Origin: OCS155 cluster bacterium AG-333-G23
Lineage (GTDB): Bacteria > Actinomycetota > Acidimicrobiia > Actinomarinales > Actinomarinaceae
DNA length: 64,000 bases
Direction: 5' to 3'
Assembly: GCA_003282445.1 (NCBI GenBank)
Contig: QBZE01000004.1
Location: forward strand, 14,836-78,835
Shown one piece after another: positions 45,386 to 52,020 of this stretch. Each line of letters starts with the position of its first letter. Position 1 is the first letter of the stretch. A program made the position numbers and the translations under genes. The notes below the pieces were generated by a model that had not been told where the DNA came from, searched no databases, and saw only the letters and a program-made list of their open reading frames with translations.

Positions 45386-47243
45386 CTTCTTCCAAGCTTA
45401 ATTCTTCAACTTTCTTTAATTTGGTATAAAGTGTATTTCTGAGATATGGTTTTTTATTATTTTCTTTTATAAGATTAATAAATTCATGATCTGTAGTTTC
45501 TTGACCATGCGATGCTCCAGAAGCTCTACTGATATTTTCGTTAATTAATGTGCCACCTAAATCATTAACACCAGCTTTTAATAAATTTGAAGCTCCATCA
45601 TGTCCAAGCTTAACCCAACTCGCTTGTATGTTGTCAATAAAAGTATTGAAATAGATTCTTGCTAATGAATGGATAAGAACAATTTCATCCCATGTTGGAC
45701 CAGGCATACTTTTTCCCTGAAGGTAAATTGGTGATCCCATATGAACAAAGGGAAGGGGTACTACTTCTGTAAATCCCCTAGTTCTACTTTGGAGTTGCCT
45801 TATTAGTGAATAATGATTTGTCCAAGATTTTATATCATCAATATGTCCAAACATAATAGTTGCTGTTGACTTGATTCCAATTGAATGAGCAACTTCCATT
45901 ACATATGCCCATTCTTTTGATGTGATTTTATCTGGACATAAATATTTTCTAATTCGATCATCTAATATCTCCGCAGCAGTTCCTGGCAAAGTGTTTAGAC
46001 CTGCGTCTTTTAACATAGATAGGTAATCTTCAATACTTTTATTTATTGTCTCAGCACCTTGCCATATCTCTAGTGGCGTGAAACCATGAATATGCATATC
46101 TGGTATTTCTTCTTTAATTTCTTTTACTAGATTTAAATAAAATTCACCTGTGTAGTTAGGATGTATTCCTCCCTGGAGACATACTTCTGAAGCTCCTGAT
46201 TCATATGCTTCCTTTGATCTTTCAACTACTTCTTTTGAATCTAACGAATAAGGAACTTCTTTTAGATCTAAACTCTTTGGGCCTTTTGAAAAACCACAAA
46301 AACCACATTTATAATAACACTGATTCGTATAATTAATATTTCTGTTTTTTACAAAAGTGACTTTATTTCCGTTAATTTTTAGATTTAATTCATTTGCAAA
46401 TTCTGAAATTCTATTTATATATTTTCCTGAAGTTTTAAATAATTCAGTTAAATCATCATCTGTAATTATTTCTTCATCTTCTAATTTTTCAAATATATAA
46501 TTAAATTTATCCGATTTATAATCTGAATCATTATTAAAAACATAATTAAATAATTTTGGAATTGTTTTACCACTACCTGGATACCAGTCTGTAGTCTTTC
46601 TTCTATAACCACGTACATCCCTTGTAAGCAAATAATTAGTGAATTCTTCTTTTTTAAGTATTTCTCTTGCTTCATTAATTTTTAGAATTGGTGATAAAAC
46701 AGTACGTTCATATAGGTTCTTATTGCTTATATTTTGTAACTCAGCAATCTGCTCAGTATTCCAATCTCTTAACATTAAGTCGTTTACACCATGATTAATA
46801 GCATCTAAAGCATCATCAATAGTATTTACATATTTAGATATTAAATGTTCATAATCTGGCTTATAAAGATTGATAAAATTCATATCATCAAGTTTGGATA
46901 CTTGTATTGTTCTAGGTTTTAACCTTGTTAAGACTTCTAATGCAACTTCTTTATTCCCCTTATATGAATAAACTAGTCTTCTTGAATCAGTATTTTTATA
47001 TGTTTCCCAATCTTCATCATTTATTAACCACATAGAAGATTCGTAATTAATATTGTTTGAAATTGTTTGGAAACCTTTTCTGTTAATTTCTACAAAATTT
47101 AGATCATCTTTTATTAAAAAAGAGGAAGTGCCTTCTTTTCTTCTAGAGTTTAAAAATATTTCATTATCATTGTCACAAGGTCTTATTCTCAGATAAGATA
47201 TATTAGCTTGCATATTCATATTTTTTTGGATATCCATCTTCAT
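45369..47243 (-). CDS. cofH: FO synthase CofH-type radical-SAM subunit with ~250-300 aa N-terminal region of unknown function
   Basis: Radical-SAM CYYKCGFCGF at aa 309-318. CofH-like C-terminal half (GGIHPNY...GTAAEILDD...SATIMFGH). Overlaps cofG by 41 nt and trmD by 17 nt. Confidence 0.85.
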   Translation of the reverse strand: MKMDIQKNMNMQANISYLRIRPCDNDNEIFLNSRRKEGTSSFLIKDDLNFVEINRKGFQTISNNINYESSMWLINDEDWETYKNTDSRRLVYSYKGNKEVALEVLTRLKPRTIQVSKLDDMNFINLYKPDYEHLISKYVNTIDDALDAINHGVNDLMLRDWNTEQIAELQNISNKNLYERTVLSPILKINEAREILKKEEFTNYLLTRDVRGYRRKTTDWYPGSGKTIPKLFNYVFNNDSDYKSDKFNYIFEKLEDEEIITDDDLTELFKTSGKYINRISEFANELNLKINGNKVTFVKNRNINYTNQCYYKCGFCGFSKGPKSLDLKEVPYSLDSKEVVERSKEAYESGASEVCLQGGIHPNYTGEFYLNLVKEIKEEIPDMHIHGFTPLEIWQGAETINKSIEDYLSMLKDAGLNTLPGTAAEILDDRIRKYLCPDKITSKEWAYVMEVAHSIGIKSTATIMFGHIDDIKSWTNHYSLIRQLQSRTRGFTEVVPLPFVHMGSPIYLQGKSMPGPTWDEIVLIHSLARIYFNTFIDNIQASWVKLGHDGASNLLKAGVNDLGGTLINENISRASGASHGQETTDHEFINLIKENNKKPYLRNTLYTKLKKVEELSLEEDVIKI

Positions 47244-48327
47244 TTATAACATTACTAACTTTTTCAAACATTTTTTCGTTCAACCATTCTTTATTTATAA
47301 AATTTGGATATACGGGAAGCCGAGGTTTTAAAATTTGACCAGAATTATCTATTTTTATATTTAATTCATTTAAATCAGGCCAGAGATGATCTGGATTTAC
47401 TAAGTCAATCGTTTTTGGTGATATTCCACCTAAGTCATTAATACCACTAAACAAGAAATCATCAACTGATGAGAGAAGATTTGGAGGGACCTGTAATGAT
47501 ATGTGCTTAGGCAGAAATATTCGAACTGTTGCTATTATTCTCAAAAATAGATCATTCACTATTTCAGGATTGTTTTTCATTAATGTATTTCTTTTTGCTC
47601 TAAAGTTTTGAAGTATAATTTCTTGTATTGCTGTATTTTTAAGGCAAAATAATATTAAGTTTTCGATGTCTTGTATAAGCTCATCTTTAGTATCTGTAAT
47701 ACCTAAAAGTAATCCTGTGGTAATTGGATATTTAATTTTTTCTGCATTATTTATTGTTTCCAATCTTTTTTCTATTATCTTAGTTTTTGCTTTGTAATGT
47801 GGTTTACCAGGATTAAAGACATTTTTTGAAAAAGTTTCTAACATTAACCCACCTGAAGGAGAATGATTTTTATATTCTATAATTTCACTTGTAGTCATAA
47901 GGCCTGGATTAGCATGAGGAAATAAATTATATTTATCATTTACTCGTTTCATATTTTCAACTAAATAATCATGAGTAGAGGTAAATCCTAAATCTTTAAG
48001 TTGGGTTTTTGCTTCTTCCCACTTTTCTTCAGGTTTATCACCTAATGTAAAAAGTGCTTCATAGCAACTATTTTCATGACCGACTTTTCCTATAATATCA
48101 ACTTCATCAAAATTTAAATAGGTTCCACCTTCTTTTGGAGACTTTACAAAAGTACAATAACCACAAGAATCCTGACATAACGTTGTCAATGGTATGAATA
48201 CTTTTGGACTAAATGTAATATCACTACCAAATTCTTGCTTTTTTATAGAATACGCTTTTTCAGTTAATTCTTTTGTTGATATGTCACCAAAGAGACATTC
48301 TTCTATATTTTTACTTAATTCAGCCAT
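47203..48327 (-). CDS. cofG: FO synthase CofG-type radical-SAM subunit
   Basis: Radical-SAM CQDSCGYCTF. CofG-like (NPGLMT, GLLLGITDT, ILQNFRAK). Confidence 0.88.
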   Translation of the reverse strand: MAELSKNIEECLFGDISTKELTEKAYSIKKQEFGSDITFSPKVFIPLTTLCQDSCGYCTFVKSPKEGGTYLNFDEVDIIGKVGHENSCYEALFTLGDKPEEKWEEAKTQLKDLGFTSTHDYLVENMKRVNDKYNLFPHANPGLMTTSEIIEYKNHSPSGGLMLETFSKNVFNPGKPHYKAKTKIIEKRLETINNAEKIKYPITTGLLLGITDTKDELIQDIENLILFCLKNTAIQEIILQNFRAKRNTLMKNNPEIVNDLFLRIIATVRIFLPKHISLQVPPNLLSSVDDFLFSGINDLGGISPKTIDLVNPDHLWPDLNELNIKIDNSGQILKPRLPVYPNFINKEWLNEKMFEKVSNVINEDGYPKKYEYAS

Positions 48328-48406
48328 TTACTTACACATTCAGATAATATTATTATTTGATTGTAACAAGAAACAATGAATCTTTACACTCTAGAGAAGA
48401 GGAGAA

Positions 48407-49426
48407 TTGAAAAATATATCATTACTTGGTTTTGGAAGAATAGGTAGAGATCTATTTAGACAGAGTATTAACGAGGAAAATATAAATATTGTTTCAGTAT
48501 CTGATGTAGCTGATAAAGATAATCTTATTTATTTACTAAAATATGATTCTATCTATGGACCAATAGACGCTGATATTACTAAGACAGAAAATGGTATTTC
48601 AGTAAATAATAAAGAAACAACTTTTAATAATTGGAAAGATGCTGACGATTCTAACTGGGAATCAATTGACACTGACATAGTAGTTTTAGCTACTGGTAAA
48701 CAACAAGGCTCCGAAGAAGCTCAAAAGCATTTAGAAAAGGGAGCCAAAAAAATTATTATTGCCTCTACTCCAAAAGATAAAGAAGAAATAGATATATTTG
48801 TACCTGGAGCAAATGATGAAGATATCGATTTTTCTAAATCAATAATTTCTCTAGGATCAAATACAGCTAATGCATCAGCTCCAATCATTAAACTAATAAA
48901 CGAAAAAGTAGGAGTTGAACGAGTTTTCATAAATACTATTCATGGTTATTCAAATTCAAATAGACTAGCTGACGTTGCCGGAGAAGGATTTAGACAAAAT
49001 AGAGCAGCAGGTGAAAATATTATTCCAAACAAAACTAGCTCTTCAAATGTTATAGAAAAAGTTCTACCTTTCTTAAAGAATAAAATAACTTCATCTTCCA
49101 TGACTGTACCCATTCCAGATGGAAGTATTCTTGATTTGACGATTGATATAAAAGAAAAAACATCATCCGAAAATATAAATAAAATTATAGAAGATAGCAT
49201 AACGTCAAAGTATTTATCTAACAGAATTGGTATCACTTATGATCCTATTGTCTCATCTGATGTAGTAGGTAATTCTTTATCAGGATTAGTAGATGCAAAA
49301 TCAACAATGGACATCGATGATAAAAAAATAAAAATTTTAATTTGGTTTGATAACGGCTGGGGTTATTCTTCACGAATCCTTGAAACTATAAAAATCTATC
49401 AAAGGGAAGGTACCAATAATGAATAA
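48407..49426 (+). CDS. GAPDH-like protein lacking the catalytic cysteine (predicted non-canonical or pseudo-enzyme)
   Basis: Rossmann GFGRIGR and overall colinearity with the next gene. The active-site box is SLGSNTANASAP instead of SNASCTTNCLAP (Cys149 to Asn, Cys153 to Ala). STGAAKA becomes KTSSSNV and MRVP becomes MTVP (Arg231 to Thr). TTG start. Confidence 0.8.
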   Translation: MKNISLLGFGRIGRDLFRQSINEENINIVSVSDVADKDNLIYLLKYDSIYGPIDADITKTENGISVNNKETTFNNWKDADDSNWESIDTDIVVLATGKQQGSEEAQKHLEKGAKKIIIASTPKDKEEIDIFVPGANDEDIDFSKSIISLGSNTANASAPIIKLINEKVGVERVFINTIHGYSNSNRLADVAGEGFRQNRAAGENIIPNKTSSSNVIEKVLPFLKNKITSSSMTVPIPDGSILDLTIDIKEKTSSENINKIIEDSITSKYLSNRIGITYDPIVSSDVVGNSLSGLVDAKSTMDIDDKKIKILIWFDNGWGYSSRILETIKIYQREGTNNE

Positions 49427-50423
49427 CGTAGCTATAAATGGTTTCGGAAGAATAGGAAGATCTATTTTAAGAATAATTGTTGAGCAAGATTTAGATATAA
49501 ATGTTGTAGCTATAAATGATTTAGGAGATTATGAAAATTTAGCTTATTTATTTAAACATGATTCAATAATGGGAGTTTTAGATGCTGAAATTACTATTAA
49601 AAAAGATATCCTAAAAATTAATGATCGTGATATAAAACTCATATCAATATCTGATCCTTCTAAGTTGCCATGGAAAGATTTAAATGTAGAGATCGTTGTT
49701 GAATCAACTGGAATTTTTACAGATAGTGATTCATTAAATAAACATATAAATGCAGGTGCTAAAAAAGTGCTACTAACCGTGCCTCCTAAAGATGAGATAG
49801 ATGCAACCATTGTTCTTGGTGTAAATGATGATAATTTAACAAGTGAATCTAAATTGATATCTAATGCTTCCTGTACAACTAATTGTTTAGCTCCTATTGC
49901 AAAAGTATTAAACGATAATTTTACTATTCAATCTGGGTTGATGACAACTGTCCATGCTTATACTAATGATCAAGCTTTAGCCGAAACAACACATAAAGAT
50001 TTTAGACGTGGGAGAAATGCTACCCAAAATATTATTCCTACATCTACAGGAGCTGCAAAAGCAGTCGGTATGGTAATGCCAGAATTAAATGGGAAATTAG
50101 ACGGTATGGCAATGCGTGTTCCCGTACCAAATGGCAGTGTTGTAGACCTAATAGTTGAATTAGATAAATCTGTAACAGTTGAGGAAATTAATAAAGCAGT
50201 TAAAAAAGCATCTGAAAATGAACTTAATGGGATATTAAGCTATTCAGAAGTTCCTCTAGTTTCAACAGATATATTGGGGAATCCTAATTCAAGTATATAT
50301 GACGCTACCTCTACAGAAATATTAGAAAATAAACACGTTAGGGTAGTCTGTTGGTATGACAATGAATGGGGTTATTCAAATAGAGTTGTTGACCTTATCA
50401 ATAAGCTAATAGAAGAATATTAA
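49419..50423 (+). CDS. gap: type I glyceraldehyde-3-phosphate dehydrogenase
   Basis: NGFGRIGR, SNASCTTNCLAP, HAYTNDQ, STGAAKAV, MRVPVPNGS, WYDNEWGYS. Its start overlaps the upstream paralog by 8 nt. Confidence 0.93.
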   Translation: MNNVAINGFGRIGRSILRIIVEQDLDINVVAINDLGDYENLAYLFKHDSIMGVLDAEITIKKDILKINDRDIKLISISDPSKLPWKDLNVEIVVESTGIFTDSDSLNKHINAGAKKVLLTVPPKDEIDATIVLGVNDDNLTSESKLISNASCTTNCLAPIAKVLNDNFTIQSGLMTTVHAYTNDQALAETTHKDFRRGRNATQNIIPTSTGAAKAVGMVMPELNGKLDGMAMRVPVPNGSVVDLIVELDKSVTVEEINKAVKKASENELNGILSYSEVPLVSTDILGNPNSSIYDATSTEILENKHVRVVCWYDNEWGYSNRVVDLINKLIEEY

Positions 50424-50424
50424 A

Positions 50425-50847
50425 ATGAATAATAATTTACCAGATCCACCAAAAGCAGTAGGAAACTATACGACAATAAAAAAAATTGGTAATTTAATAT
50501 ATACATCAGGACATGTACCAATTACTGAAGATGTAAAATATATTGGAAAAATTCCTAATGACCAGACAACAGAAGAAGGATACGAGGCCGCATCACTATG
50601 TGCAGAGTTAACCCTTGCAACACTTTCAGAAAATTATGATCTTAAAAAATTAACACCAATAAATGTTGTTGGTTTTGTAAACTCTAGTGATGACTATACA
50701 GAACATCCAACAGTTCTAAATGGATTTACAGATAAGCTTGGTGAATACTTTGAATCAAAAGCTACTAGATCCGCTGTTGGTGTGTCTAGTCTACCAATGA
50801 ATGTGTGTGTAGAAGTACAAGCTATATTTCACATAGACGAGGAATAG
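50425..50847 (+). CDS. RidA/YjgF/TdcF family protein (enamine/imine deaminase family)
   Basis: About 140 aa with the family pattern GNLIYTSGHVP...RSAVGVSSLPMNVCVEV. Starts 1 nt after the gap stop. Confidence 0.75.
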   Translation: MNNNLPDPPKAVGNYTTIKKIGNLIYTSGHVPITEDVKYIGKIPNDQTTEEGYEAASLCAELTLATLSENYDLKKLTPINVVGFVNSSDDYTEHPTVLNGFTDKLGEYFESKATRSAVGVSSLPMNVCVEVQAIFHIDEE

Positions 50848-50850
50848 AAG

Positions 50851-51558
50851 TTGACTAATTTAACAATTGGTATATCAACAGGGATAAAAGATACAAAAAT
50901 GTCTCCTGGAATTATTCCGTGTGCTGTTTTAAGCGCTGAGTTTATAAAATTATGTAATAAATTTGAAGCTCATGCTGTAATATTTCCACCACAATATAAT
51001 AAACCAAATTTTTCATTGGATGGTATAGATGGCTTAATCGTTACAGGAGGTGGCGACATAGATCCATCTCATTACAACGAAAATCCAAGCGATAAATTAG
51101 AACGAGTATCTATGGATAGAGACTTAACCGAATTAAATTTATTAGAAAAAGCTGAAGAAAAGAATATTAAAACCTTAGCAATTTGTAGAGGTCATCAATT
51201 ATTGAATATTCATATGGGAGGGTCCTTACATCAAGACATACCTGATGCAGGTTTTAAAGATATAGAACATGCTAAACCCTACGAGAATGCAACTAAACAT
51301 ATACATGAGATAGAAATAGACAAAAATACAAAATTAAATCAAATATTAAAAGTTGAGACTTTAAAAGTAAACAGTATCCACCATCAAGCCATTAATAAAC
51401 TTGGAGACAATTTAGAAGTTTCTGCGAGATCATCAGATGGAATTATAGAAGGAATAGAAACAACTAATAATTGGGATGCGATCGGAGTCCAATGGCATCC
51501 TGAATATATCTCAGAAGATAAAGCATCAAATGATTTATTTGATTGGTTAATTAACTAA
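50851..51558 (+). CDS. class-I glutamine amidotransferase, peptidase C26 (gamma-glutamyl-gamma-aminobutyrate hydrolase-like)
   Basis: GGGDIDP, nucleophile ICRGHQLLN, SIHHQ, VQWHPE. TTG start. Confidence 0.8.
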   Translation: MTNLTIGISTGIKDTKMSPGIIPCAVLSAEFIKLCNKFEAHAVIFPPQYNKPNFSLDGIDGLIVTGGGDIDPSHYNENPSDKLERVSMDRDLTELNLLEKAEEKNIKTLAICRGHQLLNIHMGGSLHQDIPDAGFKDIEHAKPYENATKHIHEIEIDKNTKLNQILKVETLKVNSIHHQAINKLGDNLEVSARSSDGIIEGIETTNNWDAIGVQWHPEYISEDKASNDLFDWLIN

Positions 51559-52020
51559 TTTATTTTTTAAGATAAGTTTTTTATTTTCATAAGCAAAATA
51601 ATGGTCATTATAAGGTATTACTACTTCTTCATTGTCCCAAACATTGCAAAAAATATATTTATCTGAATAAAAATATCCTAGAATTTTTATATTATCATTT
51701 AATATTTCATTTATATAAAATCCAGGCCAAGGCAATCCATTATTTAGATAATGATCTATTTCTTCTATAGATATAGAGACTTCATAATTTCTTAGTTTTT
51801 CGGCACTATCTATATTGTCGATTTTTAATATCTTTACTAAAAATCGATTTTTTAAATGTTTTTTAATTTCTTTAATTTCATATTCTCTATTATTTATATA
51901 TACTTTTTTGTTCTTAAAACTAAATATACGAAAAAATATCTCGTGATTTATATAAAGATAGCCATTTAAAGAATGTGGTTTACCTAGGGTGCCAATATTA
52001 TATAGTTTTTTATTAATCAA
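51547..52020 (-). CDS. rimM: ribosome maturation factor RimM
   Basis: GTLGKPHSLNGYLYIN N-terminal barrel. Conserved position after the KH protein and rpsP. Confidence 0.8.
   Translation of the reverse strand: MINKKLYNIGTLGKPHSLNGYLYINHEIFFRIFSFKNKKVYINNREYEIKEIKKHLKNRFLVKILKIDNIDSAEKLRNYEVSISIEEIDHYLNNGLPWPGFYINEILNDNIKILGYFYSDKYIFCNVWDNEEVVIPYNDHYFAYENKKLILKNKLVN

Follow-up and report, generated by a model that had tools for sequence, protein, structure and literature searches.

What could a glyceraldehyde-3-phosphate dehydrogenase (GAPDH) homolog without the catalytic cysteine be doing when its gene runs directly into that of a canonical GAPDH? The question is raised by a gene pair in a 64,000-nucleotide stretch of the genome of OCS155 cluster bacterium AG-333-G23 (Candidatus Actinomarina; contig QBZE01000004.1, positions 14,836 to 78,835), hereafter the window. 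We denote the first gene of the pair gapX, a label for the present work only that bears no relation to the old Corynebacterium gapX/gapB name, and the second gene gap; the coordinates are given in Table 1. These are the only GAPDH-family genes in the 1.07-Mb assembly, and gap encodes the sole catalytic GAPDH of the genome. The answer that we favor, and for which the chances appear evenly balanced, is that GapX is an NAD(H)-binding, catalytically dead subunit that is co-made and assembled with Gap; from the comparisons described below, we infer NAD(H) binding, physical association with Gap and an effect on Gap activity.

An earlier reading of the window (the sequence-only reading) had described the two genes as a homologous, colinear pair encoding proteins of 339 and 334 amino acids, respectively. 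The open reading frames (ORFs) and a BLASTP comparison of the proteins (35% identity over 330 residues, E = 1e-76) agree with this description, and both proteins match the Pfam domains Gp_dh_N and Gp_dh_C (E values of 4e-23 and 2e-37, respectively, for GapX). The residues that this reading had listed as kept or lost in GapX were likewise placed correctly (numbering is that of the Bacillus stearothermophilus enzyme unless stated otherwise). GapX retains an intact Rossmann motif (GFGRIGR), His176 (within TIHGYS) and the C-terminal WFDNGWGYS, and the active-site box SNASCTTNCLAP of Gap is replaced by SLGSNTANASAP, with Cys149 changed to Asn and Cys153 to Ala; STGAAKAV is replaced by KTSSSNVI, and MRVPVP by MTVPIP, with Arg231 changed to Thr. 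Three more changes, beyond those originally listed, are Arg195 to Gln, Asp181 to Ser and Glu314 to Gly. A true cysteine hidden by an offset of the alignment, which the sequence-only reading had named as a potential pitfall, was ruled out: Asn152 of GapX falls on Cys149 with zero offset in two independent alignments, by BLASTP to Gap and by HMMER to the B. stearothermophilus GAPDH, and the GapX translation has zero Cys. Comparison with the GAPDH and Epd family models, a check that the same reading had suggested, places GapX outside all cut-offs. With the TIGR01534 equivalog model (cut-off 367.2 bits), Gap scores 437.4 and GapX 286.2; GapX is also below the cut-offs of the Epd models TIGR01532 (197.5 against 530.6) and NF010058 (200.7 against 539) and of the model for the ArsJ-associated GAPDH, NF033735 (239 against 450), and fails every other GAPDH or Epd model. 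At the C-terminus, GapX continues for 11 residues past the last GAPDH helix, with no regulatory Cys pair or extension.

The losses were tabulated over 102 non-redundant GapX/Gap pairs of Acidimicrobiia. The anion-binding sites are Ps (Thr179, Asp/Thr181 and Arg231) and Pi (Ser148, Arg195 and Thr208-Gly209). Part of this definition, and the roles assigned to Cys149, His176 and the two sites, follow PMC12041015. In GapX, Cys149 is replaced by Asn in 102/102 pairs, Ala210 by Ser in 100/102 and Glu314 by Gly in 101/102; Arg231 gives way to Asn in 58 and to Thr in 42 of the 102 pairs, Gly209 to Asn, Lys, Ser or Thr (Ser in the window), and Arg195 to a variable residue (Leu, Thr, Ser, Gln or Lys; Gln in the window), whereas the partner Gap has the canonical residue at each of these catalytic or phosphate-binding positions in all 102 pairs. 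Position 181 is mostly Ser in GapX, and position 176 is His in 90/102 pairs, including that of the window, and Lys in 12/102; the partner Gap is canonical at these two positions in 102/102 pairs as well. All that is left of the Ps and Pi sites in the window GapX is Ser148, Thr208 and Ser/Thr179. Because there is no nucleophile and neither a Ps nor a Pi arginine, GAPDH chemistry is excluded, and the earlier claim that GapX is not a conventional phosphorylating GAPDH stands, given the changes at Cys149, Arg195, Arg231, the 208-210 loop and Glu314 and the score below the TIGR01534 cut-off.

The NAD site shows a different pattern. GapX has the GxGxxG motif, Asp32 in 102/102 pairs, Thr96 in 94, Ser119 in 99, Asn313 in 98 and Tyr317 in 101 (in its own numbering, Asp33, Asn316 and Tyr320 in 102/102, 98/102 and 101/102, respectively). 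The NAD site of the partner Gap is canonical except for Val at position 119, the usual site of Ser; this Val is found in 102/102 partner Gaps (residue 121 of Gap in the window), and Ser in 99/102 GapX. Only five positions (119, 147, 149, 210 and 314) reach 95% conservation in each protein and yet differ between the two. By the GAPDH numbering, all of these except 119 map to the active-site region, and all five are occupied by small or neutral residues, so that the pocket includes no new conserved charged residue. In sum, GapX has kept its NAD-site residues and lost the nucleophile together with both phosphate sites.

The substituted residues are maintained over a broad range of genomes. A search of 5.8 billion proteins retrieved 120 homologs with 61-98% identity to GapX, and the conservation of the Asn variant, which the sequence-only reading had proposed to examine, is complete: all 120 have Asn in place of the catalytic Cys, within a common box S-[LF]-G-S-N-T-[AT]-N-A. 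Given this recurrence, in 120/120 homologs and in 102/102 pairs, the substitutions are far beyond chance. Among 201 Acidimicrobiia genomes, both genes were detected in 42 of the 47 from the same genus, with one or no match in the other five; the tandem pair is also present in several other families of the class, and in many families there is just one GAPDH. In named genomes, a scan identified more than 575 loci, ranging from Actinomarina single-cell genomes to Acidimicrobiia metagenome-assembled genomes (MAGs) from soil, sediment, groundwater and sponges.

The two genes are also tightly joined. The 8-nt overlap of the gapX stop with the gap start, noted in the original reading, is present in the sequence, and in 119 of the 120 loci with both genes, the distance between the gapX stop and the gap start is -8 to +4 nt. 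The exception is an Actinomarina single-cell genome, AG-917-O09 (L069, 2994..3762), where gapX ends at about residue 250, 241 nt before gap, which is either a frameshift error of the single-cell assembly or a real pseudogene. Together with similar junctions in five further subclades from other phyla, this conservation argues for the translational coupling of gapX and gap that had been proposed from the window alone. Selection was assessed within Actinomarina by the ratio of non-synonymous to synonymous substitution rates (dN/dS; Nei-Gojobori method, NG86; 222 pairs). The median dN/dS is 0.136 in gapX, against 0.082 in gap. Non-synonymous changes accumulate about 1.6 times faster in gapX than in its partner, and gapX is under strong purifying selection. 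The relaxed selection or frameshifts in relatives that would betray a decaying copy were not found: dN/dS is about 0.14, well below 1, and a frameshift is seen in 1/120 loci, the above single-cell assembly.

Phylogenetic analysis shows that the Asn-type proteins of Acidimicrobiia are only one part of this group. After the Actinomarina cluster, the other nearest representatives at 50% identity include proteins without Arg231 in which position 149 is Ser, Val, Ala, Gly or Cys; in databases, these are named "type I glyceraldehyde-3-phosphate dehydrogenase" or "NAD-binding domain-containing protein". In the maximum-likelihood (ML) tree, they join the Acidimicrobiia Asn type in a GapX-like superclade of 22 rows (ultrafast bootstrap (UFBoot)/SH-aLRT 100/99), which is recovered in 100% of the bootstrap trees and includes, outside Acidimicrobiia, members from Acidobacteriota, Planctomycetota, Krumholzibacteriota and uncultured marine bacteria. 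Arg231 and Glu314 are absent throughout the superclade, the residue at position 149 varies by subclade (Asn, Ser, Val, Ala, Gly or Cys), and residues 195, 209 and 231 also differ between sister subclades. Each member with a readable contig lies directly upstream of a canonical gap, with stop-to-start distances of 0 nt (P0135, marine), -4 nt (P0128, P0130, P0129 from Acidobacteriota and P0192 from Planctomycetota) or +5 nt (P0124, marine); in a Krumholzibacteriota MAG (L121), where Cys149 is kept and Arg231 is absent, the distance is about +11 nt. The partner Gaps are canonical wherever the sequence is available (for P0128, only an N-terminal fragment of 125 residues). The gapX-gap pair is present in at least five bacterial phyla, and gapX, far from being a single odd gene, belongs to a large and old family that spans several phyla. 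The coupled arrangement is common to all subclades, which presumably have a function in common as well; given the variation at position 149, this function cannot rely on a reactive residue there. The marine Ser149 subclade represented by P0135 (137 cluster members, on contigs of up to 2 Mb) has an additional N-terminal segment of about 85 amino acids (locus L129, 167..421), in which no Pfam match at E <= 0.1 and no helix-turn-helix or other regulator domain were detected.

The partner Gaps have diversified in parallel with GapX. In the ML tree, the solo Gaps other than L133 (five of six) belong with ordinary GAPDHs to a clade supported at 99/96, with all 18 partner Gaps outside it, and the branching of the partner Gaps mirrors that of the GapX clade. 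This pattern suggests that a single old tandem duplication gave rise to the gapX-gap pair, which was then inherited, and probably also transferred between lineages, as a unit. The solo gap at L133 (genome G066, family f23), which is neither next to a gapX nor in a pgk-tpiA operon, branches with the partner-type Gaps, possibly as a result of secondary loss of gapX. In Acidimicrobiia with a single GAPDH, gap sits in the classical rapZ-yvcK-gap-pgk-tpiA operon, and the corresponding operon of the window genome (ancestrally uvrC-rapZ-(gap)-pgk-tpiA), which lies outside the window (contig C2, locus L137, 3441..11502, - strand), reads uvrA-uvrC-rapZ-pgk-tpiA-gpmA and lacks gap; accordingly, the coupled gap is the housekeeping enzyme. 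In this operon, pgk begins right after rapZ, with no gap, yvcK or whiA between them, and a gpmA-like histidine-phosphatase gene follows tpiA.

The residues that hold the GAPDH tetramer together are also preserved in GapX. In the B. stearothermophilus enzyme, mutation of Tyr46, Ser48, Arg52, Trp84, Asp282 or Tyr283 splits the tetramer into dimers (PMC8910861), and the interface positions were taken from these published mutants. Tyr46 is found in 99 of the 102 GapX sequences, Ser/Thr48 in 102, Arg/Lys52 in 89, Trp84 in 102 and Asp282 in 101; Asp186 (102/102) and Asp/Glu276 (101/102) are kept too. Tyr283 is replaced in both proteins, by Val in GapX and by Ile in Gap, and at positions 46, 52 and 276, the partner Gap varies and GapX is the stricter of the two. 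The AlphaFold2 model of GapX is a confident GAPDH fold, with a predicted local distance difference test score (pLDDT) of 88.8 and a predicted template modeling score (pTM) of 0.89, and Foldseek aligns it to PDB 1gd1 with a template modeling (TM) score of 0.90. No stretch of GapX is better conserved than the S-loop, yet this loop is the sole region that remains unplaced in the monomer model (residues 183-204, pLDDT <50), which fits a loop that would become ordered only within an oligomer.

The proposal that GapX is a non-catalytic subunit rests jointly on the NAD site and the tetramer-interface residues that it has kept and on the stop/start overlap. Under this scenario, GapX would be a folded pseudoenzyme of the GAPDH type, able to bind NAD(H) and incapable of GAPDH chemistry; gapX and gap would be transcribed together and, via the overlap, translated together; and GapX would join Gap in a hetero-oligomer, in the simplest case a GapX2-Gap2 tetramer held by the usual GAPDH interfaces, with GapX in the role of a structural or regulatory subunit that might activate or stabilize Gap or sense NADH/NAD+. 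A hetero-oligomer had been suggested in the sequence-only reading, and the comparative genomic data strengthen this suggestion, which we nevertheless word as a prediction. A more sweeping version, which we regard as tentative and somewhat doubtful, is that the glycolytic GAPDH of Actinomarina, of many other Acidimicrobiia and of at least four further phyla is an obligate heterotetramer in which two subunits are catalytic and the other two dead, with the NAD(H) site of the latter as a built-in allosteric sensor or activator of the former, and that gapX-gap is an ancient alternative form that displaced the gap of gap-pgk-tpiA.

Several observations weigh against a partner subunit. Many Acidimicrobiia live with a solo Gap, so Gap in general needs no partner, and the genes of non-interacting enzymes can be tightly coupled as well. 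The 18 partner Gaps, which come from five or more phyla, group together with only moderate support (88/67). Furthermore, Asn149, Ser148, Thr150, Gly147, Ser210 and Gly314 are near-invariant in Acidimicrobiia GapX over the class-wide divergence to about 40% identity, and such a pocket looks remodeled, not just decayed, as would suit a new ligand or activity. The same pocket favors the main alternative, which we consider unlikely but deserving of attention, namely, that GapX is an enzyme in its own right. It would be an NAD-dependent oxidoreductase that forms no covalent thioester and, for instance, transfers hydride directly to or from its substrate (an alcohol, a gem-diol or a phosphate-free activated acyl compound), and it would be co-expressed with Gap merely through related metabolites. 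Apart from the pocket, the intact NAD-site residues and the retention of His176, or Lys in its place, as a possible base are compatible with such an enzyme, and there are GapDH-superfamily clades without the Cys that still reduce activated acids directly (PMC12041015). However, in sister subclades whose genes are arranged in the same way, position 149 is Val, Ala or Gly and the residues at 195, 209 and 231 are different, which leaves no common catalytic constellation; the pocket gains no conserved charged residue, the position of Arg195 is free to vary, and the only conserved neighbor is gap, with no pathway hinted at.

It is still less probable that GapX is a non-stoichiometric regulator, either an NAD(H) or metabolite sensor that transiently controls the expression or activity of Gap or an RNA- or DNA-binding moonlighter akin to eukaryotic GAPDH. 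In favor of this role, the nucleotide site is kept while catalysis is lost, and the position of gapX directly upstream of gap recalls the cggR-gapA arrangement of Bacillus; the N-terminal segment of P0135 might also be cited in its favor. Against it, GapX contains no DNA-binding domain (Pfam reports Gp_dh_N and Gp_dh_C only, as it does for P0135 at E <= 0.1), the stop/start overlap favors similar synthesis of both proteins, which is unusual for a regulator, and the tetramer-interface residues are conserved. As for a functionless, decaying or recently inactivated gap duplicate, the lost catalytic residues, the faster non-synonymous evolution and the frameshifted copy at L069 are what one would expect of it; with the low dN/dS, the frame intact in 119/120 loci, Asn149 invariant across the pairs, a deep multi-phylum clade (100/99) and a confident structural model, this explanation is scarcely credible, and we rejected it on the selection and distribution data.

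The proposed non-catalytic subunit can be placed against known systems. Compared with the type I phosphorylating GAPDH (GapA, EC 1.2.1.12, TIGR01534; PDB 1gd1), GapX has the same two-domain fold, 35-36% identity, the NAD motif with Asp32, Asn313 and Tyr317, the S-loop, and Tyr46, Trp84, Asp186 and Asp282; unlike that enzyme, it lacks Cys149, Arg195, Arg231, Gly209/Ala210 and Glu314, belongs to a separate clade and always adjoins a true GAPDH. The chloroplast GapA/GapB enzyme is an A2B2 heterotetramer of two GAPDH paralogs, one of them regulatory, and is thus a parallel to the complex that we propose for GapX and Gap, and GapA structures were among the hits of the HMMER and Foldseek comparisons; however, both plant subunits are catalytic and GapB exerts its regulation by way of a C-terminal Cys-containing extension, whereas GapX has neither a catalytic Cys nor such an extension. 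Epd/GapB (TIGR01532) and the ArsJ-associated GAPDH (NF033735) are, similarly to GapX, specialized type I paralogs with altered phosphate sites but, unlike GapX, keep the catalytic Cys and His.

Among other enzyme families, the AdoMetDC and DHS "prozymes" of trypanosomatids are dead-paralog partners of active enzymes. Another case is the hexokinase HXK2 of Trypanosoma brucei, which is inactive unless co-expressed with HXK1 (PMC4106842). In these systems, an impaired paralog is maintained by selection for pairing with the active one, and gapX resembles them in combining the loss of catalytic residues with purifying selection (dN/dS 0.136); unlike gapX, they are eukaryotic and belong to other enzyme families, and for GapX, pairing with and activation of Gap are proposals drawn from sequence. 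The trypanosome flagellar GAPDH homolog TbGAPDHL also lacks the nucleophilic Cys and may retain the cofactor site (PMC4106842); in contrast to gapX, it is a poorly conserved eukaryotic component of the paraflagellar rod, is read as a relic and is uncoupled from the gene for the active GAPDH. A search of the full-text literature found only TbGAPDHL and general reviews and turned up no account of a Cys-less paralog of type I GAPDH in bacteria, of a pseudo-GAPDH or of a GAPDH with a dead subunit. TbGAPDHL, together with the HXK1/HXK2 pair, and the plant GapA/GapB heterotetramer are the nearest precedents. The sequence-only reading was likewise not aware of a described Cys-to-Asn GAPDH paralog with this organization, and a 2025 review of the GapDH superfamily lists no GapX-like clade (PMC12041015).

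Few enzymes have been studied as much as GAPDH, which is regarded as a homotetramer with all subunits identical and catalytic; the comparisons described here suggest that this enzyme probably has an undescribed non-catalytic partner subunit. If this is the case, then, in Actinomarina, which are among the most abundant ocean bacteria, and in the other organisms that carry the pair, central carbon metabolism runs on a different enzyme architecture, and the negative cooperativity and half-of-the-sites behavior of GAPDH would gain a natural, "hard-wired" counterpart. Moreover, thousands of entries labeled "type I glyceraldehyde-3-phosphate dehydrogenase" would be mis-annotated, inflating the gap copy numbers in metabolic reconstructions.

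Table 1. Features of the gapX-gap locus, in window coordinates
Feature	Position	Strand	Description
cofG	47203..48327	-	FO synthase subunit; divergent upstream neighbor of gapX
Shine-Dalgarno-like AGGAG	48400..48404	+	2 nt ahead of the gapX TTG; read from sequence
gapX	48407..49426	+	ORF, TTG start, 339 aa; type I GAPDH paralog, Asn149 type, without catalytic Cys
Codon AAT	48860..48862	+	Asn152 of GapX, at the catalytic Cys149 position (B. stearothermophilus numbering)
Coupling junction	49404..49426	+	Shine-Dalgarno-like GGGAAGG at 49404..49410, inside the gapX 3' end
Overlap ATGAATAA	49419..49426	+	8 nt; gap ATG at 49419
gapX stop TAA	49424..49426	+	
gap	49419..50423	+	ORF, ATG start, 334 aa; canonical type I GAPDH (SNASCTTNCLAP, His176, Arg195, Arg231)
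Codon for Val of gap residue 121	49779..49781		Position 119, usual NAD-site Ser
RidA-family gene	50425..50847	+	Pfam and NCBIfam matches; packed tightly 3' of gap
C26 gamma-glutamyl hydrolase-like gene	50851..51558	+	Pfam and NCBIfam matches; packed tightly after the RidA-family gene

The neighborhood of the pair is far less conserved than the pair itself. The RidA-family gene and the C26 hydrolase-like gene follow gap in 24/24 Actinomarina loci and are absent from the other Acidimicrobiia loci. The cofG gene flanks gapX in the same 24/24 Actinomarina loci and at six other Acidimicrobiia loci (L105, L111, L114, L117, L120 and L124; 40-44% identity) but not at the other 50, nor beside the pair in other phyla, so that its adjacency looks like lineage-specific synteny outside the conserved unit. 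A functional tie of gapX to cofG/cofH, RidA or the C26 hydrolase was considered and found to be unsupported; because the flanking genes are unrelated between families and phyla, the conserved unit is the two-gene pair.

The assigned start site of gapX agrees with the ATG starts of its orthologs: the start codon is TTG in the Actinomarina subclade of the window (loci L003-L006) and ATG or GTG, at the same position, in the other Actinomarina subclades. A scan of positions 48200..51800 for promoters and terminators returned counts at the chance level for AT-rich DNA. Finally, several of the best representatives of the GapX family are long proteins with GAPDH-like stretches, namely, P0122 (2089 aa, four stretches) and P0136 (1455 aa, two stretches), and further long proteins of this kind are P0199 (1862 aa) and P0178 (958 aa); these may be fusions or mis-called genes.

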